Notes: a model not told the origin generated them from the letters alone. 64,000 nucleotides of DNA from an uncultured Spirochaetota bacterium (GCA_963835575.1 CAWIGG010000004.1:1-64000), one strand, 5' to 3'; positions 1 through 54,029 are shown, counted from the stretch's first letter. A program made the numbers and translations.

Positions 1-1
1 T

Positions 2-1435
2 CCCCAAATTTACATATTCATTACCGCCGCCGCCTCCGTATTGTTTACGGAACATATGGTTAAAAAGAATATCCAGCGTCTGAGTATCGCCCCAGCTTAA
101 AGGCTTGGGATCCGGCAGAGGAGCGAGAGCCACGGCCCTGACCATAAGATAAAGGTAAAGTGTCATCGCGAAAATAAACATCCATCCGCTGTATGTCAGT
201 ATTTCGATCATTTTATCCGCCAGCCCATAATTCACTTCCGATTTTTTTATAACAGAATCAAAAATCCCGAAGAAGAATAAAACAACAATGGCTAACGCGG
301 CGAGGATGATAATTATAGGGTCGATTTGTGTTTGCTGCATCATTCCCTGCTGAAGCCCTGTATTATCTACCGTAGTGAAACCGAATAAATATTGATTGGT
401 TTGAGGGACAATCTGATTATTATTTACAAAAATTGAAAATGCTATAAAAGCCGCTATACCAATTACTACGGATATTCCATAAACGACCCCGGCTGTGCTG
501 ATCCCAAAAGATTTTTTTACTTTTACAAGTACCGTATAAAAAGTAATATAAGCGGGCACAAGAAAGATGCCGATCAGAATAAGAGGCAGATGGAGCGGAT
601 AAATAAGCCTGATAGCAAACAAATATACATAGAGCAAAATAATGCTCGTGATAAACAGAATTCCAAGAATGATAAGCCCCGGAATTCTGGCGGCAAACTC
701 TTTTTTAAATTGCTTCGTCCCGTCCTGCACAATAATAAAAATGGCAAAAGGCAGCATAACAATGAAAAATGCGGCAATAAACCACAAAGGAAGCATATGA
801 TCAGTAAGAGAAAGTCCCATGATGAAACCGAGCAGGATAGTCATTCTTTCCGCAAAATGGATTTTTACCTCATTCCTGAAATACATCATTTCTTCATACC
901 AGAGCACCATGACAAAAAGCATCGCCGCGACCAAAAGCACGTTCAAGGAATAAAATTTTCCGCTCGCCGAGGATTGCTGCCAGAAATCATAGGAAAAAGC
1001 GAAAATGAAAGCTGACGCGATGGCAGGTAGATGAACTGAAAGCGATATTTTACCTTTGTCCCGGTTGAAACCCAGCAGCTTAACCAGAACAAGATATAAC
1101 ATAAAAATGGCAAAAGCGCCGCTGAAAGCCACATAAAGGTTCACGCGGTGAGCGACATCACCCAGCGGAATAAAGGTAAAGACCTTGCCCAATATGCCGT
1201 AAAGCGGGTATCCCGGAGGATGACAGGCGCCCATTTGGTATATCTCTGTTGTCAGCTCGCCGCTATCCCCGGCTATAACACCCGGCGCCATCGTCCTTAT
1301 GTAAACGATAAGAACTATCAGTGTAATGATTGAAGCAATAACAAGATCAAACCATTTGATCCTGTAAGGCATGAAGCCTTTAGGATAGATCCCCTGAAAT
1401 ATTTTGCTTTCTTTTATTTCGTTTGCATCACTCAT
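2..1435 (-). CDS. DUF2723/TMEM260-like multi-pass membrane glycosyltransferase (putative protein O-mannosyltransferase), partial, runs off the left edge
   Basis: Not in the ORF track because there is no stop in the window. Manual translation from ATG 1435 gives MSDANEIKESK...APGVIAGDSGELTTEIYQMGACHPPGYPLYGILGKVF...RVNLY, with the GDSGE and HPPGYPL motifs of DUF2723 followed by many TM segments. Confidence 0.85.
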   Translation of the reverse strand, partial: MSDANEIKESKIFQGIYPKGFMPYRIKWFDLVIASIITLIVLIVYIRTMAPGVIAGDSGELTTEIYQMGACHPPGYPLYGILGKVFTFIPLGDVAHRVNLYVAFSGAFAIFMLYLVLVKLLGFNRDKGKISLSVHLPAIASAFIFAFSYDFWQQSSASGKFYSLNVLLVAAMLFVMVLWYEEMMYFRNEVKIHFAERMTILLGFIMGLSLTDHMLPLWFIAAFFIVMLPFAIFIIVQDGTKQFKKEFAARIPGLIILGILFITSIILLYVYLFAIRLIYPLHLPLILIGIFLVPAYITFYTVLVKVKKSFGISTAGVVYGISVVIGIAAFIAFSIFVNNNQIVPQTNQYLFGFTTVDNTGLQQGMMQQTQIDPIIIILAALAIVVLFFFGIFDSVIKKSEVNYGLADKMIEILTYSGWMFIFAMTLYLYLMVRAVALAPLPDPKPLSWGDTQTLDILFNHMFRKQYGGGGGNEYVNLG

Positions 1436-1577
1436 AACTGTAACCTTTTTATCCAGCGGAATAATGATTTGAGTATTTTATTTTAAAGATCAAAATATCG
1501 CAATAAACCGGATAAATTTTTAAAATCATTGAATTTATTTATCATCAGATACAAAATCGTGAATTATTGTAGATGGA

Positions 1578-1645
1578 CAGTATATGACTTTTTTGTCCGG
1601 TATACAACTTTATTATCCAGTATACGACTTTATTGTCATTTCACA
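1578..1645 (-). repeat. Tn7-type end: TGT-N5 followed by three 20-bp TnsB-binding repeats
   Basis: Minus strand reads TGT GAAAT GACAATAAAGTCGTATACTG GATAATAAAGTTGTATACCG GACAAAAAAGTCATATACTG; the first unit matches the Tn7 end pattern TGT-N5-GACAATAAAGTC. Confidence 0.85.
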
Positions 1646-1877
1646 GAAGGATACCATTGCAGATCATAGCGAGAAAATAATACTATATACTGCGAATGGA
1701 AGAAGTGGGTACATTAGAGTTCAAGGAGGAAAGATATTTACAAGGGTTCAGGCATTTAACAATGAAAAGGAACCTTTGGGTCCAGCGTACATCGTGGAAC
1801 ATTCATTCGGATATCAATATAAAAAAGTTGACGATCCTGTATCTAAGCTCATTACTATTGCTAAAATGGATTTTTAA
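1646..1877 (+). pseudogene. Probable 3' remnant of a cargo gene truncated at the TnsB-site array
   Basis: The open frame (track ORF 1584..1877) starts inside the repeats. The remainder (KDTIADHSEKIILYTANGRSGYIRVQGG...AKMDF*) reads like natural protein and begins at the ACA terminus. Confidence 0.45.
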
Positions 1878-2002
1878 GTATTAAAAAAACTGGTAGACGT
1901 ATCCTTAAGCACGTGTTGCGGGGCGGCCGGGGACAATAACATAAGTTCTTGTGAAAATAGTCCCAAAGCACAAATAAGATACTAATATTCTATTGAAAGT
2001 AT

Positions 2003-3583
2003 TTATCCAGTCTTTTCCATAATATTTAAGGGTAAAGCATATTTTTCTACGGCCATAGCTATGGCTCTGCTTACAATTTGAGAATAACCCGGCCGGATTC
2101 CCGAGAGTCTCTTTATTTCCCATTCTTTTACTTCATGTTCTTTCGAATGGAGTTCGGCGGCAATCCATTCAATTCGTTTGAGCTGGTAATTTTCCACTGA
2201 TTCAACTGCTGTATAAAGGAATGCCACCGTCTCGGGCATTTCTTTCGGATGTCTCTTCAACCAGGCAAGTGTTCCGGTTATTTTCCCAATTAAATTGACT
2301 GTTATTCTTTTTGGTTTTGCCTTATCGTTAAGTATATTCCGGACAAGAATCTTAGCTTTTGCCAGGATTGCTTTATCCCTCTGAACCCAATCAATTCTAT
2401 TTACTTTTATTTTACTTTTAGAGAGTGGAGAAATATTATCAAGCCAAGTCCTGTCGTTCCTGCGAAGCCAAGTAAATAATCTATAGTTTTTAGATGCCAG
2501 TAAAGACCTCATAAGGCTAGGATATTTATTTTTTAGGCTGGTCCATTCGCTTCTATATTTCTCAAGGGTTGAAACGTCATATGTCTGCTTTTTCAGTATG
2601 TATTGTTTTGTTCCTGTTCTACCTAATTTTAGATACTTTATCTTGCAATACTTCTCCAGGCTTCCACATAAATAGCGCATCATAAGAACATGACGGATTG
2701 GATGGAATGATTTATCATGCTTTCTAATAATTTTTATTGGCCAGCTTCGAGGATTATCAGTGGAGAAATCCGATTGGAGTAATTTAAGAAGACTGCTTCC
2801 AAAATAATTATGGATATCATCAATAAATCTGTCCCAGAAGTGCTTTTTATATTCCATGTTAATTAAGCCCTTGTACCCAAGCAAAGCAACATATTTACGT
2901 CTGAATCCCAGTTCAATATCCTGTGATCTTCTAATTAATTCATAATTATTATATAACCACAGAATGTCTCTTGCAATCTCAGCCAAACTCTCAATGGTAC
3001 TATCCGTTATATGTATAACTGTGGTGATATTCAGACAGTTGTCTGGACCGGCTGCGGAAAATCCTTGTTTATGATCCGCATGAAGTTTAACAAGACTATC
3101 TTGCAGGACTATTTTGTGAACCGGGCAAACCAAGACACCTGGAGTGTTATGGATTCGGTGCCAGTAGTATTCCCCATAATTTGCAAGGTCATTCTGACAG
3201 CAGTCAGGACAGAATTTAAGAATGGGAAATATATGAACAGAACTCGTCGTTATACCTGTCTTTATGTAGACATTTTCTCCATAGGGTCGTCTCATAGCAT
3301 TATATACTGATTTCGCTCTATCAGCGGGTAGAAAAGCCGTATAAAAAGGATACAATGTATGATTCAAAATTAATTCTTTCTTTTTTAAAGAATTATTAAA
3401 CGGTAAATTTTGAATAAGAGTATCTATGTGACAAGGCAAATCAACTACGGAATAAAAGCCTGAATTCCCAAACAGATCTTTCATAGTTGTTCTATAATAA
3501 ATATTGCCGCTACGGACATGGTACCTGGCTAATATACTGTAAAGAAGTTCGTCGGGATATGGATCGGGAAAGAAAGTGACCAT
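2003..3583 (-). CDS. tnsD: TnsD family target-site selection protein (full length)
   Basis: FFPDPYPDELLYSILARYH N-terminus, Zn-binding CPDC...HRIH...CPVH, FHPIRHVL, C-terminal WLRRNDRTWL / RIDWVQRD / KPKRIT motifs. The likely start is MVTFF at 3583 (track ORF starts at 3616). Confidence 0.93.
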   Translation of the reverse strand: MVTFFPDPYPDELLYSILARYHVRSGNIYYRTTMKDLFGNSGFYSVVDLPCHIDTLIQNLPFNNSLKKKELILNHTLYPFYTAFLPADRAKSVYNAMRRPYGENVYIKTGITTSSVHIFPILKFCPDCCQNDLANYGEYYWHRIHNTPGVLVCPVHKIVLQDSLVKLHADHKQGFSAAGPDNCLNITTVIHITDSTIESLAEIARDILWLYNNYELIRRSQDIELGFRRKYVALLGYKGLINMEYKKHFWDRFIDDIHNYFGSSLLKLLQSDFSTDNPRSWPIKIIRKHDKSFHPIRHVLMMRYLCGSLEKYCKIKYLKLGRTGTKQYILKKQTYDVSTLEKYRSEWTSLKNKYPSLMRSLLASKNYRLFTWLRRNDRTWLDNISPLSKSKIKVNRIDWVQRDKAILAKAKILVRNILNDKAKPKRITVNLIGKITGTLAWLKRHPKEMPETVAFLYTAVESVENYQLKRIEWIAAELHSKEHEVKEWEIKRLSGIRPGYSQIVSRAIAMAVEKYALPLNIMEKTG

Positions 3584-3588
3584 ATGAG

Positions 3589-4560
3589 TTATTTTTTTAT
3601 TATATCGGATAGACATGGAATTAATTTACAATAATTTGATTTGCAAGAGTAATAATTAAGGGGTAAATGAGTAAATGAAATCAACCAATTAGGTTTATTA
3701 TCATTACAATTATGTCTTAATAAAGCCTCGAAACAATTATGACTATTCGAAAAGTAAATATGATGAGTAATCATCATCTCATGGTCCCATCCAAAAGGCA
3801 GATACTCATAACTTAGTTTATTTAATGGACGAAATTGATTAAGAAAGCTAAACTTAACATCATTATCAGATCTTATCATTTTATAATTATTAAATAACCA
3901 TTCAACTCCTTCAATATGAAATAAAAGAGCATCAAAATCATCTATCTCTAAATTTCCTGTTGGTGTACCGGAGCAGTTTTCCATATCCGCAGAAATGCAT
4001 TCAAATTTATCGATTTTCTTTAGTTCAATTGTACTGCATTTTAGAAAAGTTTTATGGAAAGGACAAATAAAAGCACAAGGAACATTATGGATTCTGTGCC
4101 AGTAATATTCACCAAATTTCATTAAACTTTCATTATTGCATAAGGTGCAATATTTCAGACACTTGAAAGAATCAATTAAATAATATTTTGGTCTGATCTC
4201 ACCTAAAACACCTACGTCATATTTTTCATTACCCTTCATAGCTTCATAGACAGTTTGTACTTCATATTCCGGAAGGAAAGCTGTATAGTAAGGGAATAAA
4301 GTGTTATTCAATATCAATTCTTTTGCAGTCAGCCCAATCACCATTTGGAGTCTTTCAGCCAGGATGTTTATATAGTTCGGTACATCAAACATTATTTGAA
4401 CATCTAAATTGCCGAATAATTCTAAAATTGTATTTGAAAATAATATATTGCCACTTCTTTTATGATAACGTGCGATAATGCTATAAAGAAGTTCATCTGG
4501 ATAAGGATCTGGGAAAAATATTGGTGATCCTACCCCCTCTCGAAAATATTTAGCCGGCAT
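3589..4560 (-). CDS. tniQ: Short TniQ/TnsD paralog lacking the C-terminal DNA-binding region
   Basis: FFPDPYPDELLYSIIARYH, NNTLFPYYTAFLP, CTLC...YWHRIHNVP...CPFH; collinear with the first ~300 aa of the neighbouring TnsD; the start overlaps the tnsC stop. Confidence 0.88.
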   Translation of the reverse strand: MPAKYFREGVGSPIFFPDPYPDELLYSIIARYHKRSGNILFSNTILELFGNLDVQIMFDVPNYINILAERLQMVIGLTAKELILNNTLFPYYTAFLPEYEVQTVYEAMKGNEKYDVGVLGEIRPKYYLIDSFKCLKYCTLCNNESLMKFGEYYWHRIHNVPCAFICPFHKTFLKCSTIELKKIDKFECISADMENCSGTPTGNLEIDDFDALLFHIEGVEWLFNNYKMIRSDNDVKFSFLNQFRPLNKLSYEYLPFGWDHEMMITHHIYFSNSHNCFEALLRHNCNDNKPNWLISFTHLPLNYYSCKSNYCKLIPCLSDIIKK

Positions 4561-6052
4561 TTTTCGGGATGACGCCGGCATTTTTTAATGATTCATAAGC
4601 ATTCATATTATTTTTCTTTCCTTCATCAATGATATATTTGAGATCGTCTTTATCTTCATTTCTTTCATTTGTAGAAACTTTCTTTGTTTCACTGTTTTTA
4701 AGTTTTAACGTCTTTCTTGTTTTTTTAATATTTAAATTATCATTTATTGTTTCTAAAGATTTATTATAAGCCAGATCCATTTTGGGGTTTAAGTAACTTT
4801 TAGTCTGGTTTTCAATAATTTTATCTATATCAATGGGTGTAAGGTCTTCATATTTGATAATCTTAATCGGGTCTCCGGAACGGAGTGCTGTCAGCATAGG
4901 TTTCACTAATGATAACCATCTATTTGAAGTAGCTTTAATTAAAGCAGGAGTAATTTCCTCTTTTTTTGTAAATATAGCCTCCCTTTGGACTAATACAAAT
5001 AGTTTTACTGCAATATCTACTATCCCCTGGCTCTCTTTATAAAACAAGCCTTTAATTTCAGCTGTCAATTCCGTTTTATTTCTTGTCCATTGATATTTCC
5101 ACATACCCCTCATAAAGATGTCCCACCATTGATCTTTGCGCAAGTTTTCCCATAAAAAACAACCTTCCTGCCCTTCGCTGCGACGGGCTGGGGAGAAATC
5201 TCCTTGCAGTATAGGTTTTGCTTTGTTTGTTCCTATAAGGACAACTGGAACACCTAAATTGTCCACAAGATTAACGAAAAATTTATGCATCCTCTCAGCT
5301 CCAGTCCTTTTTGCATTTAGTAAGGCCTGTATTTCATCTATCACCAATATTCCAAGGTGATGACGTCTTGCTAAAATAGCCATTTTTACCATCATCTGGT
5401 CAACTGTACCCCTCCCCAAAACATTATATGATTCATCTCCAAAAATCCTGCCGAATTCTGTTAAAAAGTTAGTACATAATCCTTTGACACTGCCGTCAAA
5501 GGGACAATCCAGTTTCAACCATACTAACTGAAAATGGTGGAATGGTTTTCCTTTATAATTTTTATGAATGATTACTTGGGAAAATAAGGATAAAATCTTA
5601 TTTACCGCTGTCGACTTACCGGTTCCGGAAGAACCAATAATTGAAAAACCTGAGGCTTTAGCTGGGGGCAGTTTCATATCATTAAAGTTACTGTTGCCAG
5701 CTATAAGAGCTTTATGAAGTTTTGTAAGAGTAACAGAATATGATTGCCATGGATTTCTAGAAATATATCCCTGCCGGATTGTTGTAGATAGTTTGCTTTC
5801 TAATATAAAGTGAGAATCCCAAGGCCTGAAGTAACTATATAGCCTTCGGATATATTGAAATCTATCATCAATGCTATCATTGCATTCTGAATCTTTAAAT
5901 AAAGGGTAATTTTGAGTAATTGAATTAAACTGCTCATATGACAATATGGGATGAAGTGCTTGGGTCAATGGATTGTTATTATATTCAGGTTGTTTAAATT
6001 TGATATATTGTGCTTGTTCAACTGTTACATCATCGGGAAAATTAAATTCCAT
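4550..6052 (-). CDS. tnsC: TnsC AAA+ ATPase
   Basis: YNNNPLTQAL, IRQGYISRNP, Walker A GSSGTGKS, WLKLDCPFDGS, Walker B ILVIDEIQ, SQGIVDIAVKL. Confidence 0.95.
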   Translation of the reverse strand: MEFNFPDDVTVEQAQYIKFKQPEYNNNPLTQALHPILSYEQFNSITQNYPLFKDSECNDSIDDRFQYIRRLYSYFRPWDSHFILESKLSTTIRQGYISRNPWQSYSVTLTKLHKALIAGNSNFNDMKLPPAKASGFSIIGSSGTGKSTAVNKILSLFSQVIIHKNYKGKPFHHFQLVWLKLDCPFDGSVKGLCTNFLTEFGRIFGDESYNVLGRGTVDQMMVKMAILARRHHLGILVIDEIQALLNAKRTGAERMHKFFVNLVDNLGVPVVLIGTNKAKPILQGDFSPARRSEGQEGCFLWENLRKDQWWDIFMRGMWKYQWTRNKTELTAEIKGLFYKESQGIVDIAVKLFVLVQREAIFTKKEEITPALIKATSNRWLSLVKPMLTALRSGDPIKIIKYEDLTPIDIDKIIENQTKSYLNPKMDLAYNKSLETINDNLNIKKTRKTLKLKNSETKKVSTNERNEDKDDLKYIIDEGKKNNMNAYESLKNAGVIPKNAG

Positions 6053-8186
6053 TTTTTTTATTTAATACCTCTTCTTGCTGTTTAATTATATATTCCATGT
6101 CAATTATATTGTCTTCATTATTATTTTCTTTTATTTCTTTTAAAGGATTCGAGTTATTAATCTTATTTTGAATAAATGATTCAGATTTTCTTCTTTTATA
6201 TTTTTCAAAAGCACGATTCTGTCTGATATTGGCAATCTTTTCAGATTTACTAATCTTCAATCCTTTTTTTTGATTATTTTGTTTTATTGCCTTTTGATTA
6301 ACATCATCAATATGTGATTGTAATCCCGCCTCGGATTGAAATTTAGATTCTTCAATTTTCTTATTGTAGTTATTTTGTGTAATAAGAAGGTATTCGAGTT
6401 CCTCAAGTGTTGTATTCTTATATCCTCTGCCTTCAATCATATAAAATTCATCATAATTTTTTCCATCTTCGGATCTGATATAAACATTATCCATGTTCCT
6501 GGGATCGAAAGAAATTTCAATAGGATAATCACCCTTATCCCGGGCTGTTATAAACCAGTTATTAAAATCATCATTTTTATAATAATTCCCTTTGTATCGC
6601 AGACCTCGGCTTGTAACCATGCCCTGGTATTTAGGCATCAATCCAACTTTCAAATCTTTTTCACATATTGTTTGCAAATCTCCAGAACGGTTAGAAAGGC
6701 CCCATTCCCAGAGCTTGAGTGGTATTGGCTCGACATAATCAGAAATCATGATTTCATCTCTTCTAAAATTGTCTATTGGTTTGTTATTGTAATGTAAAAC
6801 ACAGTAAATCATAATCTCTGTAAATTGATCAATATCCAATTGAGCATCGAGCCGGTAGTCATTTCCACCCCTTTGCCTAAAATCAGGGAGTATTGAACCC
6901 GGCATTTGAGGTTTTACTTGTTCATTTATTGTTCTGAAAGTTCGCTCTATAATCCCTTTAAAATCTGCTCGATAAGGGGGGGTATTTTCCACAGTAATAT
7001 GAAACGAATTGATTAATGTATCAGATTGATAACTTATTAATTCCCCTCTGTCTCCTGTAATAATTTTAGGTAGATACTTACAGGGCCAATCTGCATCAGA
7101 AATATGTATGTCAAAATCAGAACAAAATTTAACCTTGTCACTGCCAGTATTTGCTAAAGCCATCATGGCTCCTATCCATGATGGTCCTTCCAGTCCCACA
7201 TAAAGGCCGACAATCATTCTAGAAAAGACATCTTTGACGACATATATTACAGGTCTCCCTATTATACAATCTCTGTTTAATCTCGATAAAAGGTATATGT
7301 CTCCTACAGTTGCATCAATTTGGTATTTGGTCCCAGGACCTATTATTGGTGAATCAGAGGTGTATAAAACCGGTCTTTTATTTAAGTAAAAATAATTTAA
7401 ACTTTGCCTGGATGATATTTTATTTTGGAGATCGCGGTCTTTTTTATCTAGATAATAGTTGAATTGAGTAAGTTTTGGTTTTTGTTTTTTAAAAATCACT
7501 TTTCTGATTCCATTTTCAGTAACAATCTTTTCAGAAAAAAATTTGTTCAACATTTTTAGGTAACTTGCTTTACGTGAATACTTTTTTGGAGAATAGTAAT
7601 ATTTTGTGGCTGCCCATTCGAAAAATATTTCTATGGTCTTATCTATATTGATCCTGCTATCATCAACAGTGTATAATTTGGGAGGTCGTCCAATTTTCTT
7701 GTCACTAAGTTTTTTTGCTTTGCCTTTCCCGCCACATTTTCGAAAATCTGGTAGTAAAGCATTTTTATTTTTCCCTCTCTGCCAGTATCTTCTAATATAT
7801 TTATAGACAGTTCTATAGGAACATTTATACTCATCGACTATTTGCTTAAGGAGTCTTCCCCTGTTTTCACTGTAATATATTTCTGGTTCTGATGAAACTG
7901 CTTTTTCAATCATATTCCACGCGTAATCTCTCATTTTATTATTCTTTTCTCTTATTTTATCTCCAGGGTCAACAAAAAGATACGGATCGGTCGTGACTTT
8001 TTCCATCTTCCCGGATAAAATATGTTCTTTAATTTCATCCATATTTCTTATGATAGGAAGTGCATTTGCCAAATAAATATTTATTAATATAAGTAAGTTT
8101 GATCTGTTATCGACCCATAATACTCTATCAATATTATTTTCAGTATTTTCTGTCGATTGAATCAACTCATTAACTACAATATCCAT
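6042..8186 (-). CDS. tnsB: TnsB DDE transposase
   Basis: RRYWQRG..KNALLPDF, GPGTKYQIDAT (D), GRPVIYVVKDVFSRMIVG, TGDRGE (D), PPYRADFKGIIERTF (E). Confidence 0.96.
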   Translation of the reverse strand: MDIVVNELIQSTENTENNIDRVLWVDNRSNLLILINIYLANALPIIRNMDEIKEHILSGKMEKVTTDPYLFVDPGDKIREKNNKMRDYAWNMIEKAVSSEPEIYYSENRGRLLKQIVDEYKCSYRTVYKYIRRYWQRGKNKNALLPDFRKCGGKGKAKKLSDKKIGRPPKLYTVDDSRINIDKTIEIFFEWAATKYYYSPKKYSRKASYLKMLNKFFSEKIVTENGIRKVIFKKQKPKLTQFNYYLDKKDRDLQNKISSRQSLNYFYLNKRPVLYTSDSPIIGPGTKYQIDATVGDIYLLSRLNRDCIIGRPVIYVVKDVFSRMIVGLYVGLEGPSWIGAMMALANTGSDKVKFCSDFDIHISDADWPCKYLPKIITGDRGELISYQSDTLINSFHITVENTPPYRADFKGIIERTFRTINEQVKPQMPGSILPDFRQRGGNDYRLDAQLDIDQFTEIMIYCVLHYNNKPIDNFRRDEIMISDYVEPIPLKLWEWGLSNRSGDLQTICEKDLKVGLMPKYQGMVTSRGLRYKGNYYKNDDFNNWFITARDKGDYPIEISFDPRNMDNVYIRSEDGKNYDEFYMIEGRGYKNTTLEELEYLLITQNNYNKKIEESKFQSEAGLQSHIDDVNQKAIKQNNQKKGLKISKSEKIANIRQNRAFEKYKRRKSESFIQNKINNSNPLKEIKENNNEDNIIDMEYIIKQQEEVLNKKNGI

Positions 8187-9028
8187 TATGCAAGCATCTC
8201 CTTTTCAACCTGTATTTTATCATTTACGATAAGATTTTCTATGCCATTATCTAAATTAATACTGATATTTAAATTCATAGATATACGTTTTGTTGATAAG
8301 AGATGAAGGAAGACTTGTAGGAACTTGCCTGGTTTTTCGCTAAATTCTATATCAAGCATATTTAAAACTGACCTTATTGGTCCTTTTTCTTTTGGAATTC
8401 TCTTGATTAAAATTGAAATGAGGTTTTCAAATTTTATGGAATCTGTAACACATAAATCTTCAAGACTATGATAGCTATGGAGAAATTCAATGTTGGATGA
8501 TAATGTTTTAGGGATGTCTTTATCAATTATTAAATTCCATTGGATTCCTGCCCCTTTCCAATATTTACTTTCTATTCTAAGTTTATTTATCACACTATTT
8601 TCTTCCAATTTCTCAAAAGGTAAAACCGATATAGCCTTATCGATTGTTTTCCCGTCATTTATTTTGGTTATTATAAAATCCGAATATAGGACACGAGGAT
8701 TCCCAGTTCTGTTATTATATGGGTATTTTAATCCCTTTTCATTTGCTATTTTAATTGCAAGTTCAATATTCAATAAAGGATATTTTTCACGTATGTCAAT
8801 TACCGAATCATCCCATTCCATTAGATAAAAATACCTTGTTTCATTATCTGAAAAAAGATGATGCATCCTTTGACTTTTCCAGCCGAATATTCTGGATGTT
8901 TTTCCTATGGAAGTTTGGTTTTGTACTTTAGCCCAAGGTTGGTAATTTTTCCCATGTTTTTCGGCATAGCCAGCTTTAAGATAAGTGATTAATTTTTTGT
9001 CGCTATGTAAAAGTTGTCTCCTTTCCAA
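8186..9028 (-). CDS. tnsA: TnsA endonuclease (catalytic Lys apparently substituted)
   Basis: YQPW, GWKSQRMHHLFSDNE, DIREKYPLL, YSDFII, KLRIESKYW; TTG start with a GGAGG RBS. Confidence 0.92.
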   Translation of the reverse strand: MERRQLLHSDKKLITYLKAGYAEKHGKNYQPWAKVQNQTSIGKTSRIFGWKSQRMHHLFSDNETRYFYLMEWDDSVIDIREKYPLLNIELAIKIANEKGLKYPYNNRTGNPRVLYSDFIITKINDGKTIDKAISVLPFEKLEENSVINKLRIESKYWKGAGIQWNLIIDKDIPKTLSSNIEFLHSYHSLEDLCVTDSIKFENLISILIKRIPKEKGPIRSVLNMLDIEFSEKPGKFLQVFLHLLSTKRISMNLNISINLDNGIENLIVNDKIQVEKEMLA

Positions 9029-9092: not shown

Positions 9093-9140
9093 CATTACAC
9101 AACATTTTTATCCATTATACAACTTTTTTATTTATTTACA
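9093..9140 (-). repeat. Transposon end next to tnsA: TGT-N5 plus two 20-bp TnsB sites
   Basis: Minus strand reads TGT AAATA AATAAAAAAGTTGTATAATG GATAAAAATGTTGTGTAATG, the same consensus and 20-bp period as the 1578-1637 repeats. Confidence 0.85.
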
Positions 9141-9141
9141 C

Positions 9142-10425
9142 CTATTTCCTCGCCAGCAGTGCGAGCATCTCCACATGATGCGTCTGCGGGAACATATCGA
9201 CGAGGATCAGTTCTTTAACGGTGTAAAGATTGCTGAGAGCCTTGATGTCCCTGGCCATTGTCGGCGGCCGGCATGAGGAATAGATGATCTTTCCCGGCAG
9301 CATTTTCCTGAGCGTTTCGATGGTGCTTTCATCCATTCCGCGCCGGGGCGGGTCGACAATCATCACATCGGCATAGCCGAGTTCCGGGAGCTTCTGCTCG
9401 ACCGTCGCGCAGATGAACTGTACATTAGTCTTGATTTGATTATTTTCCATGTTCTGTTTCGCGTCTTCCACGGCGCTTTTAGCGATCTCGATGCCGATTG
9501 TCTCTTTAGCGAAATAACTGACAAAGAGGGTAATGAGTCCGATGCCGCAGTAAAGGTCAAAAATCCGCTCGTGCCCGTCCGCGTCCAGAAAACCGGTGAT
9601 CTTCTCGAGCCAGAGAGGAATGACTGAGTTATTGACCTGGTAAAAGCTGTCCTTGGAGATCTTGAATTTAATTTCACGTCCGGCCGCGCGGACCGTCTCG
9701 TATACTTCCCTGTCCTGGTACTCGTCGGAAGCGATCCAGTTCACGACAGTATCAGCTTCCTCCGTTGTCCTGACCTTGAAATTATGGGGAGGGTAGACCG
9801 GGTTGGCCCTGACGCTCAAGAGGGCTTTATTGATGCCGGGCATGGCCAGCATGCACTCCTGTATATCGACAACTGACTTTGTGTCTTTACGGAAAAAGCC
9901 GATGAGCTTTCTTTTAGGGTTGACCTTGAAAGTCTCCGTATTGCGGTAATAAAAAGGCCTGGGGCTCATGATCACGCCTGTCAGGTCGTCTATCGTCATT
10001 TGACCGATGCGCCGGAATGCTTCCAGGACAAGCTGTTTTTTTACAGCAATCTGCTTTTCATAGGGAAGCATCTGGTAGTCGCAGCCGCCGCAGAGGCCGA
10101 AGTAAGGGCATAGGGCTTTTATCCGGTCCGGTGAGGCCTTGAGTATTTCCATGGGCTCGCCGACTGCATAGTCTTTTGTTTCCTTGTAAATATTGGCCTT
10201 TATCCGCTCGCCGGGAAGCGCGTAACGGACAAAAATCACTTTTCCCTCGTCGTATCCGATGGCGCTTCCCTCGCCCGCGAATTTCTCTATGCCGAGCTCC
10301 ACTTCTCTTTTTACCGGCTTGATTTTCCGCGGATTGAAGGAAGGAAGTTCTTCTTCATCATTCGGGTTTCCCAGGGCCCCGTTTTCAAGATTCTCGTCAG
10401 GATTTTTTTCTTCGTTTATCGGCAT
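9142..10425 (-). CDS. rlmD: 23S rRNA m5U1939 methyltransferase RlmD (TrmA/RumA family)
   Basis: TRAM domain, Fe-S motif CPYFGLCGGC, SFYQVN, DLYCGIG, VDPPRRG, YSSC, DMFPQTHHVE. Confidence 0.93.
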   Translation of the reverse strand: MPINEEKNPDENLENGALGNPNDEEELPSFNPRKIKPVKREVELGIEKFAGEGSAIGYDEGKVIFVRYALPGERIKANIYKETKDYAVGEPMEILKASPDRIKALCPYFGLCGGCDYQMLPYEKQIAVKKQLVLEAFRRIGQMTIDDLTGVIMSPRPFYYRNTETFKVNPKRKLIGFFRKDTKSVVDIQECMLAMPGINKALLSVRANPVYPPHNFKVRTTEEADTVVNWIASDEYQDREVYETVRAAGREIKFKISKDSFYQVNNSVIPLWLEKITGFLDADGHERIFDLYCGIGLITLFVSYFAKETIGIEIAKSAVEDAKQNMENNQIKTNVQFICATVEQKLPELGYADVMIVDPPRRGMDESTIETLRKMLPGKIIYSSCRPPTMARDIKALSNLYTVKELILVDMFPQTHHVEMLALLARK

Positions 10426-51721: not shown

Positions 51722-52345
51722 TCACTTATCTGGAATTGAAGCGAGAATTTGACGGTTCTTATTAATACGCTCAAAGAGATTATTGACTACTTTATAATAA
51801 TCCAGAGACCCGGATTTAATCCTGTAAAGTTCATCTTCCATATGCGGCAAATCGGGTTTTAACGATTTTATATTATCAGCAGCATCCGCGAAACCCACCG
51901 CCTGATCCCAATAGTTCCTGGCATGCTTGAAATAATACTCCGCTATATCATACCCGTCAAGATAATCTTTTTTATATTCAGCATTATAGAAATAGATATG
52001 CTCTTTCATATAGAGATAACCGTAATCGATATAACCTTTTGTCAGGAGAGTACAGATGTGCATCATCAGCAGATTTTTATAACGCTCATACTGAATTTCA
52101 TCCGTAATAGGCGCCAGGGCTTTTATCGGGTGATCAAACGGGACTACATACGCCATTTCAAGAAAGTAAATATTCCTGCTGATGGAATCCTCGTCGGCAT
52201 AAAGCCATTCATTATAAAGACGGAAAAAATCCTCCTTATAATGGATCTTCTCATGTATCGGTTTAAAGCCGAATTCTTTCAGATCAGCATATGATTGAGT
52301 AAAACAAAGAAAAATTATTAATAAAAAAAAGTTGTTTTTAAACAT
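51722..52345 (-). CDS. Hypothetical secreted protein
   Basis: Signal peptide; helical aromatic-rich 207-aa ORF. Confidence 0.7.
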   Translation of the reverse strand: MFKNNFFLLIIFLCFTQSYADLKEFGFKPIHEKIHYKEDFFRLYNEWLYADEDSISRNIYFLEMAYVVPFDHPIKALAPITDEIQYERYKNLLMMHICTLLTKGYIDYGYLYMKEHIYFYNAEYKKDYLDGYDIAEYYFKHARNYWDQAVGFADAADNIKSLKPDLPHMEDELYRIKSGSLDYYKVVNNLFERINKNRQILASIPDK

Positions 52346-52410
52346 TAAGAAACCTTCCCGAATCTCCTATCTATTAAATCGGCAAAATACGGGAAAGATT
52401 GAGCCGCCTC

Positions 52411-53880
52411 TCAATAAGCTCCTTCTTTTTTCAAGACAACAGCTACCGCTTTGAACATTATAATGATATCAAGCCAGAGAGACCAGTTCTGGACATACCA
52501 GACATCGGTCTGCACTCTAAACTGATAATCCGTGTCGCTGCGGCCGCTCACCTGCCAGAGCCCGGCAAGACCGGGATAAACAGAATAATAGTACTGCTTG
52601 AACGTACCGTAGTATTTTTCAATCTCTTCCCTGACCACAGGCCGCGGCCCCACAAGGCTCATTTCGCCGCGGAGAATATTAATGATCTGGGGGAATTCAT
52701 CTATACTTGTCCGCCGCAGGAAACGCCCGATCGGTGTGCGGCGCGGGTCGTCCTTAAGTTTAAAGCTGTTATCCCATTCTTTTTGGGCTTTCGGATTCTT
52801 TTGAAGAATTTTTTTAAGCCTTTTCTCGGCATCCATATACATGGTCCTGAATTTATAGATCTGAAATTCCCTTCCGTTTTTCCCGATTCTTTTCTGAGTA
52901 TAGAGCACCGGTCCTCTGGAGGTTAATTTTATGAGAAGCGCTATAATCAGTAAAAAAGCCAGAATAATAATAAAGATAATGCCGGCCACAACAAAATCAA
53001 AAATCCTTTTTACCACAATATTCGGCGTTGAATTCAGATTATTATTAATCTTGATCATGAAGAGCTTTTCCATAAAAAGATAATGAAGTTCAGAATTGAA
53101 TATCGCCACTCCTTTAATATCCGGTATTATAACAACCCTTTTAACATGTTTGTAAATTTCATTCACAAGCCCCGTCAATACTTCCTGATCAGAAGCAGGA
53201 TTTGCAATAAACACGGTCTCAATCCTGAGCAGATTGACAAATTTCTTTATATTTCTGATACCCCTGTAAATTTTATAAATATGTCCGTTCACCGTCAGAG
53301 ATCCTTCACGCTTTTTTGAATCATCCAGCAGGCCTATGACATCGTACCCCAGATGCTCTTCATTGGACAGTCCTTTAACTGTAATGACGGCGCTTTCTCC
53401 TGATCCAATGATGAGGACCGATTCTTTCCATATTCCGATTTTATATAACAGCTTCTTGCCCCAGTACCGGACAAAAGGCAGGATCAATACCATATAAAGC
53501 CAGAGATAGAAAAAAACAGACTTGGAAACACTGCCGTACATATTCCTGATAGCGATTGTCACAAAAATGAAAACAATGGCGATTGATACCGATTTAAATA
53601 TTACTCGTGATTCTTCCCAGAACGGATAGCGCACCATATACAGTTTTTCTATCTGCAGAATAAAAATATAAGCGATGGGAATCCAGGGAATGGAAGCAAG
53701 ATAATTAAACGTATATGTGAAAGTTGAAAAATTTTCCCTGCTGAATATATAGGTGAAATTAAAAAGCAGCGTAAAGTTCAGCTGGCTGAACACGGCAAAA
53801 AGCAATGCAATATAATAAGCTATAATATCAATACATATCAGTGAAAATAACTGCACAACTGATTTTAACCGGACTTTCAT
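52411..53880 (-). CDS. wbaP: Undecaprenyl-phosphate sugar phosphotransferase (WbaP family)
   Basis: KRIFD, KFRTM, KLKDDPR.TPIG.FLRRTSIDEFPQ, MSLVGPRP, WQVSGRS, NWSLWLD. Confidence 0.92.
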   Translation of the reverse strand: MKVRLKSVVQLFSLICIDIIAYYIALLFAVFSQLNFTLLFNFTYIFSRENFSTFTYTFNYLASIPWIPIAYIFILQIEKLYMVRYPFWEESRVIFKSVSIAIVFIFVTIAIRNMYGSVSKSVFFYLWLYMVLILPFVRYWGKKLLYKIGIWKESVLIIGSGESAVITVKGLSNEEHLGYDVIGLLDDSKKREGSLTVNGHIYKIYRGIRNIKKFVNLLRIETVFIANPASDQEVLTGLVNEIYKHVKRVVIIPDIKGVAIFNSELHYLFMEKLFMIKINNNLNSTPNIVVKRIFDFVVAGIIFIIILAFLLIIALLIKLTSRGPVLYTQKRIGKNGREFQIYKFRTMYMDAEKRLKKILQKNPKAQKEWDNSFKLKDDPRRTPIGRFLRRTSIDEFPQIINILRGEMSLVGPRPVVREEIEKYYGTFKQYYYSVYPGLAGLWQVSGRSDTDYQFRVQTDVWYVQNWSLWLDIIIMFKAVAVVLKKEGAY

Positions 53881-53993
53881 TCCAATCCCTTTTTTATTTT
53901 TTTAAGGACATATTATATATTATTTTTTTAATAAAACCAAGAATCCCCTGCCTGCATAGGCACATTATATGTGAAATGCCTCATGTTAAAGTT

Positions 53994-54029
53994 AAAAAAA
54001 TAGGACTGCCTCAGCAGTCCTATTTTTTT
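53994..54029. terminator. Intrinsic terminator (A/T tracts on both sides)
   Basis: aaaaaaataggactgc-ctca-gcagtcctattttttt. Confidence 0.85.

Follow-up and report, generated by a model that had tools for sequence, protein, structure and literature searches.

A Tn7-like element at rlmD with two tandem target selectors and signs of a selector swap

Background

Tn7 directs its TnsABC machinery to glmS with TnsD and to plasmids with TnsE. Residues 1-309 of Tn7 TnsD are reported to bind TnsC, and truncations of the protein at residues 227-371 to be dominant negative, cutting transposition to 3-8 % (PMC2918618). Tn7 TnsC is described as touching TnsAB through its very C-terminus (PMC11014353). A CAST TniQ is reported to lower the TnsD pathway (PMC9881144), and exchange of targeting modules has been reported in cyanobacteria.

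Elements with two selectors are a known and common kind. Faure et al. (2023, PMC10293859) count 998 dual TniQ-TnsD loci, usually with one selector of more than 400 aa and one smaller, and describe the arrangement as having arisen repeatedly. In their account one branch of these loci is mostly devoid of Cascade, and distantly related pairs are few.

Here we present an element of this kind from a spirochete whose related records are assigned to the order Brevinematales. The DNA analysed is a stretch of 64,000 nt, referred to as the window, and the genome (94 % complete) consists of 7 contigs. An initial annotation, made from the window alone, had seen a short TniQ and a long TnsD without a Cas or TnsE partner, and had proposed a Cas-free two-selector system, a CAST that lost its Cas module or a decaying duplicate. 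We find that the element is Tn7-like and probably works like the Tn7 TnsD pathway, and that by cargo, clade and spacers it is no CAST.

Results

Ends and extent of the element

In the window, tnsA, tnsB, tnsC and the tniQ/tnsD genes stand in one operon, and the tns block is AT-rich (GC 0.30-0.37 versus 0.40-0.52 over the next 16 kb). The tnsA-side, right-type end (9093..9140, minus strand) consists of TGT and two contiguous 20-bp TnsB-type sites and lies 1 bp past the stop codon of rlmD. It adjoins CCTAT (9141..9145, plus strand), one copy of a 5-bp target duplication whose second, exact copy borders the far end of the transposon on contig C3 (G000:C3:244177). TGT/ACA ends, TnsB sites and a 5-bp duplication are all present, with the two ends on different contigs. 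The genome holds six ends of this family: those at 9140 and 1645, the only two inside the window, one at C5:484916, and three with spaced sites at C3:244177, C3:252872 and C3:328831. The perfect CCTAT duplication occurs at one of the three left-type ends of the family, for which our arithmetic gives a chance of roughly 3 in 1000.

The element is about 98 kb long, larger than the window. This extent follows from the CCTAT duplication, from an IS duplication at the contig break and from the synteny of the rlmD neighbours. Contig C3 terminates in a Mutator-family IS whose 8-bp repeat, CCCAAATT, recurs at window 3-10 in the same TMEM260-like gene, and the genes that follow rlmD in all four same-genus genomes (4/4) are found on C3 past 244177, oriented as expected. 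Alternatively, C3 may connect to the identical end on C5 (C5:484916), an exact copy of window 1-1645.

The second right-type end in the window (1578..1645, minus strand; TGT at 1645, three contiguous sites) has the orientation of the end at 9140. Because both lie on the minus strand, 1645 cannot be the partner of 9140, and an end at 1568/1645 was rejected in that role by its wrong orientation and missing duplication. The end at 1645 belongs to a nested non-autonomous element and pairs with C3:328831, the flanks GAAGG and GAGGG being alike at four of five positions. As cargo the nested element carries the 5' half of the TMEM260-like gene (2..1435, minus strand; Pfam PF11028), cut by the IS at the contig break; an intact TMEM260-like paralog is found at about C4:64783-66534. 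The right end of the nested element is present at two sites (window 1-1645 and C5:484916-486560) and only one matching left end was found (C3:328831). A 210-bp stretch is repeated at 86 % identity on either side of the nested element (window 1669-1875, C3:327820-328029), and C3 and C2 also contain a 19-bp word found near window 1947-1965. A further left-type end, C3:252872, lies 8.7 kb inside the main element with the flank ACTAT, 4/5 like the duplication; together with an end-like sequence with different sites at C3:296565, it suggests layered insertions.

The long TnsD and the rlmD site

The long TnsD (2003..3583, minus strand; 526 aa, or 537 aa from the ATG at 3616) is intact, its structure model has a mean pLDDT of 92.4, and it is the putative rlmD-homing selector. 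The host attachment gene rlmD, encoding the 23S rRNA m5U1939 methyltransferase (9142..10425, minus strand), scores 296.7 bits against TIGR00479 (cut-off 183.55). A related element, in genome G276, is inserted at rlmD no more than 2 bp from the corresponding position; it has a single TnsD, 55 % identical to that of the window over 527 aa, then a TnsE-like gene and no short copy. Reuse of rlmD as an attachment site is seen in these two elements only. By analogy with TnsD at glmS, the long TnsD very probably recognises the 3' end of rlmD and loads TnsC. The rlmD site and the signs of a selector swap are new here: our literature search, which missed most subscription papers, did not find rlmD as a Tn7 site, and the element or the site may already be listed in the locus tables that supplement PMC10293859 and PMC8649781.

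The short TniQ

The short TniQ (3589..4560, minus strand) has 323 aa, or 330 aa from the ATG at 4581. The initial annotation held that the two frames are tandem selectors with a common start, zinc finger and YWHRIHN motif, and that the short one ends where the C-terminal region of TnsD would begin. Each of these points was borne out. Pfam TniQ matches both proteins and Pfam TnsD the long one only; the two are 36 % identical over 332 columns (E 2e-57), have FFPDPYPDELLYS, a CCCH finger and YWHRIHN in common, and cease to align at about TnsD residue 326.

Conservation along the short protein is uneven, Hel1 and the zinc finger being kept and the linker and Hel2 degenerate. Hel1 retains 30 of 34 conserved columns, which equals the median of 208 long references, and the zinc-finger region retains 15 of 20, the 5th percentile of the same references being 16. 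The linker and Hel2 retain 3 of 19; the minimum among the long references is 9, six CAST-type short TniQs have 9-12, and the 309-aa relative P0002 has 13. Gaps in this hard-to-align region may overstate the loss of Hel2, and the HPxRH helix of the short TniQ falls in an alignment gap against P0002. In the N-terminal half the short TniQ and P0002 keep 45 and 44 of 54 conserved columns; this conservation, together with 323 codons free of stops, indicates that the short frame has not simply drifted.

The usual start position of the gene is without a start codon. Among the 133 of 167 homologs in which the N-terminal motif was matched, 103 start four residues ahead of the F-P motif; here the nearest ATG lies fifteen residues before F-P and overlaps the tnsC stop. 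The structure model is mostly confident to about residue 235 (pLDDT 38-66 after 240), and its best fold match is Tn7 TnsD(1-318) with E 7e-9, against E 0.41 for the I-B CAST complex 8fcu. A complex prediction for the long TnsD with the short TniQ scored 0.00, which speaks neither for nor against binding. An identical 330-aa short TniQ is found in a Logan assembly, possibly from the same sample; one DNA sequencing run contains 11 % of words in eight short pieces and leaves the tnsC-tniQ junction uncovered.

Erosion of the tnsABC core

The tnsA gene (8186..9028, minus strand; Pfam) is an open but eroded frame in which 12 of 43 near-invariant columns are not matched (63 homologs miss a median of 1 and at most 11). 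Lys132 of Tn7 TnsA is catalytic. Alignment to 1f1z places Leu136 at this position, so that the invariant active-site lysine is missing. The transposase gene tnsB (6042..8186, minus strand; Pfam Mu-transpos_C) misses 11 of 123 conserved columns, and 24 % of 70 homologs miss as many. The AAA+ regulator gene tnsC (4550..6052, minus strand; E 3e-64 to Tn7 TnsC) misses 15 of 99, as many as in 11 % of 81 homologs. Its C-terminal tail is shortened, ending 5 residues past the GxI motif; all 47 distinct homolog tails are longer (the motif was matched in 84 of 119 homologs). Judged from these alignments, the TnsA arm appears to be eroding as well as the short TniQ, and the element is probably ageing. 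All five frames (tnsA, tnsB, tnsC, short tniQ, tnsD) remain open, which pure drift would not easily produce. A promoter scan stayed at chance level (43 versus 37.2 +/- 5.7).

Relatives and locus survey

TniQ/TnsD is present in 5 of 43 genomes of the class, and two genes are found only in this genome; in G132 a contig end truncates the gene. Three class relatives have a complete junction, and none of them carries the short copy: the G276 element at rlmD, one after purU in G160 and one after glmS in G196. In the latter two, as in G276, a single TnsD precedes a TnsE-like gene. These TnsE-like genes escaped Pfam and NCBIfam in all three genomes, and a profile of 12 other loci tied them to a Pfam-positive TnsE. 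The G160 element (L016, G160:C25, about 52,000-54,000) is an intact-looking tnsABCD element with a TnsE-like gene directly downstream of purU, a possible further attachment site. In the G276 element (L015:12095-15091) tnsB is in two pieces and tnsA encodes 230 aa, which suggests that this element may be ageing too.

We surveyed 133 related loci (3 duplicates dropped); 25 were without a tnsC-tniQ junction and 26 ended too soon, leaving 82 informative loci, which were picked by similarity and are not independent. None of the 82 has a short-then-long tandem. A long selector stands alone in 40, with a TnsE-like gene in 16, with an adjacent long one in 7, with a distant second copy in 2 and with a short one in 1; mid-size selectors stand alone in 5, genes are apparently split in 2, and 9 have a short selector without an adjacent second copy, cas6 being next in 4 of these 9. 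The loci with two adjacent long TnsD genes directly after tnsC are L035, L043, L048, L056, L059, L130 and L137. An initial claim that absence or decay of the short copy in related elements would tell against a two-selector system is half borne out: the copy is absent from the three class relatives and the tandem from all 82 loci. The open frame and the existence of one other short relative, P0002, speak against pure decay.

Among 1.84 billion representatives, the best relatives of the short TniQ are P0002 (46 % identity) and its own neighbour TnsD (39 %). Starting from P0002, a search brought up no additional member grouping with the short pair by length and score, the new hits lying outside the tree described below; when the genome contigs were scanned, a single-protein query matched nothing and an alignment query did.

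Origin of the two selectors

In a tree of 33 rows the short TniQ and P0002 group together (99/95) as sister to the clade of ~525-aa TnsDs (98/95), within which the window TnsD pairs with that of G276 (99/99). The end branch of the short TniQ is 1.62 and that of the long TnsD 0.25. A tree that makes the short copy a recent duplicate of its own TnsD was rejected (p-AU 0.0005), as was one that joins it to four CAST-type TniQs (p-AU 0.013; I-B1 and I-F TniQs are outside the tree), long branches tempering both tests.

Distance ratios and codon composition suggest that the long TnsD was acquired later than the short copy. The TnsD/TnsC distance ratio between the window and G276 is 0.57, below all 1916 other pairs (minimum 0.74), and the TnsD/TnsB ratio is 0.68, with 1 of the 1916 as low, although these pairs are not independent. 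GC3 is 0.337 in tnsD versus 0.271 in tnsABC (p 0.005), and the 0.238 of the short tniQ is not different from tnsABC (p 0.24). The ratio would also be lowered by shared-target constraint on TnsD and by faster change in TnsB/C of the window, whose mean distance to outgroups is 0.15-0.20 higher than in G276. Moreover, in G276 and G160 as well, no tns gene exceeds tnsD in GC3, and trees of TnsA, TnsB and TnsC do not resolve the branching among these elements.

Cas, CRISPR and TnsE inside and outside the ends

The cargo on C3 comprises 80 ORFs of at least 90 aa, of which 77 were scanned and 3 repeat IS transposase copies left out. Cas or TnsE Pfam families are found in 0 of the 77 (20 have no family at all), and no CRISPR repeat array lies inside the element ends; the cas effector genes and array that would mark a CAST were not found within them. 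A profile of 19 TnsE-like proteins, used in a six-frame genome search, returned nothing at E 0.01, and tblastn gave no real match for tnsE. The earlier statement that no cas, CRISPR or tnsE lies between the ends holds, as far as tested, over this larger span, but the partner end is outside the window. Neither selector gene is followed by a co-oriented partner ORF of the tnsF-like kind, PADLOC on 24 ORFs gave three weak matches, none a selector, and three integrase-family ORFs in the cargo are at least 28 kb away. The stretch C3:272050-323660 carries groES/groEL, a sulfate-assimilation and siroheme block, an RND efflux operon with bacA, an AbiEii pair, ankyrin proteins and many IS copies.

The search for a Cascade acting in trans, which had been suggested earlier, brought up a complete host type I-B system at C3:228081-241418, 2.7 kb outside the far end; its use by the transposon is unsupported. 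The locus has cas6, cas8b, cas7, cas5, cas3, cas4, cas1, a cas2-like frame and a 52-repeat array, and separates the far end of the transposon from the genes found after rlmD in genomes of the same genus. Around this cas block, neither Tn7-type nor older ends were found. A second CRISPR-Cas locus (C2:809689-819117, 13 repeats) is in our reading type I-E-like by gene order. Cas5 occurs in the genome at these two host loci only, and no DevR-type Cas7 or Csy3 was found there; a search with Cas6 PF09559 matched nothing anywhere, controls included, and is uninformative. Compared with the six end flanks, the 63 spacers (51 + 12) reach 0.56-0.62, against 0.54-0.62 for random DNA. Spacer-guided insertion sites were rejected at this background level.

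Discussion

We read the locus as the outcome of a selector swap, at a probability of roughly 0.58, with the short TniQ a relic whose effect is to damp TnsC or only to couple translation to tnsD. By analogy with Tn7, the N-terminal TniQ domain of the long TnsD would load TnsC, its C-terminal helical domains would bind the 3' end of rlmD, and TnsAB would insert the element with its right end leading, 1 bp beyond the rlmD stop. The short TniQ, in the slot directly after tnsC, would be the older selector that came with this tnsABC, and the long TnsD would have been acquired later from a G276-type element that homes to rlmD, with tnsE lost. Today the short protein would provide no second targeting route, being without a DNA-binding tail and degenerate in the Hel2 that would hold a partner; the most it could do is bind TnsC unproductively and so dampen transposition, in the manner of truncated Tn7 TnsD. 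It has the putative TnsC-binding part and no DNA part, and since Tn7 truncations damp and CAST TniQ lowers the TnsD pathway, a damping relic is suggested. The open short frame may also feed ribosomes to tnsD, which starts 5 nt past its stop without a clear Shine-Dalgarno. P0002 is itself short, keeps Hel2 (13/19) and is sister to the short TniQ (99/95), so the core-only form may be old and once functional. Of the earlier proposals, decay fits the evidence best, but of something other than a duplicate of the neighbour (p-AU 0.0005).

The short TniQ might instead be a Cas-free second selector. As an adaptor it would either occupy another place next to TnsD on the TnsC ring or connect TnsC to some DNA-binding partner from the element or the host, the role that TniQ plays with TnsF in Tn6022. 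Its open frame and intact CCCH and N-terminal motif would suit this, as would a size that fits the ~300-aa core which Faure et al. take as a partner mark, a short sister, P0002, that ends at a similar point, and a Tn7 structure titled TnsC-TnsD(1-318)-DNA 7:2:1. The ends of the nested element at two non-rlmD sites could be further products of such a route, but their site sequence is slightly different and they could be the work of another transposase. With Hel2 degenerate, no co-oriented partner gene after tnsD, and the layout in 0 of 82 informative loci and absent from G276 at the same site, we consider a working two-selector system doubtful; the earlier suggestion of one has found no positive support. 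That the short gene is instead an inert pseudogene in waiting, without effect on TnsC and open by chance or only for coupling, would agree with its empty usual start position, its long branch and the general erosion of TnsA and TnsC. Yet erosion within the short copy is uneven, with Hel1 at the reference median (30/34) and Hel2 far below the minimum, and a recent copy of the neighbour is rejected, which makes inertness quite unlikely.

It is also rather improbable that the short TniQ had, or still has, a Cascade as its partner, such as that of the host type I-B system. The position of those genes and their 52-repeat array between the element and the ancestral rlmD neighbours invites the thought, and I-B1 TniQ reportedly derives from a truncated TnsD (PMC11406308). 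However, the host system lies outside the end defined by the duplication and has cas3 and adaptation genes, none of the 63 spacers matches the end flanks better than random DNA, neither DevR-type Cas7 nor Csy3 was found in the genome, and in structure the short TniQ resembles the I-B CAST complex only weakly (8fcu, E 0.41) next to Tn7 TnsD (E 7e-9). The rejected grouping with CAST TniQs (p-AU 0.013), and class relatives that use TnsE rather than Cas, weaken the idea of a CAST that lost its Cas genes. A bolder version, very unlikely in our view, would make the short TniQ and P0002 spirochete-type core-only adaptors that borrow the host type I-B Cascade for RNA-guided insertion, with a rebuilt Hel2 as the Cascade interface in place of TnsE; it would amount to RNA-guided transposition without transposon-encoded Cas. 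A TnsC-TniQ fusion of ~830 aa, once or now by recoding, is brought to mind by the N-terminal extension of the short gene, which faintly resembles the conserved TnsC tail, and by a junction that has one extra base compared with G276 and G160. The score of the shifted tail is -10.1, however, against 4.2-28.4 for 39 true tails (p 0.03-0.06 versus off-frame peptides, or 0.26 if the first residue is dropped), the best 120 of 1254 TnsC hits are all 580 aa or shorter, and the Logan assembly, possibly of the same sample, yields the same 330-aa protein, so that we regard a fusion as extremely unlikely.

If the selector-swap reading is right, the locus catches a Tn7-like element in the course of exchanging its target protein. 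It would also caution against the rule of thumb by which new selectors are mined, that a Cas-less short TniQ points to a partner still to be discovered. The list of protein-guided attachment sites grows by rlmD, seen in two elements, and probably by purU, seen in one, and the rlmD and purU TnsDs, about 41 % identical, form a compact pair for mapping DNA specificity.

Among described systems, the dual TniQ-TnsD loci (PMC10293859) share tnsABC, a selector of more than 400 aa beside a core-sized one (here 526 and 323 aa, adjacent) and, as here, no Cas; the present locus differs in a long copy that apparently comes from another element, a situation called rare in that account, and in its degenerate Hel2. 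Tn6022, with TniQ and TnsF, likewise has a short TniQ without Cas, whereas here the operon contains no TnsF-like gene and the next gene is a full TnsD. Type I-B1, I-B2 and I-D CASTs and Tn7017 also combine a short TniQ after tnsC with a long homing TnsD; here there is neither cas nor array inside the ends, the short copy falls outside the sampled CAST TniQ clade, and the neighbouring host system is complete, with cas3. The dominant-negative truncations of Tn7 TnsD (PMC2918618) resemble the short TniQ in keeping the N-terminal ~230-370 residues without the C-terminal DNA-binding part, but they are laboratory nonsense mutants, and the short TniQ is a paralog that diverged in nature and is only predicted to bind TnsC. 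With Tn7 itself the element shares gene order, a 5-bp duplication, contiguous sites at the tnsA end beside the target gene, spaced sites at the far end and, in TnsD(1-318), the best fold match of its short copy; it is set apart from Tn7 by rlmD as target, by a tnsE that was not found, by a TnsA without the Lys132 equivalent and by the extra core-only paralog.
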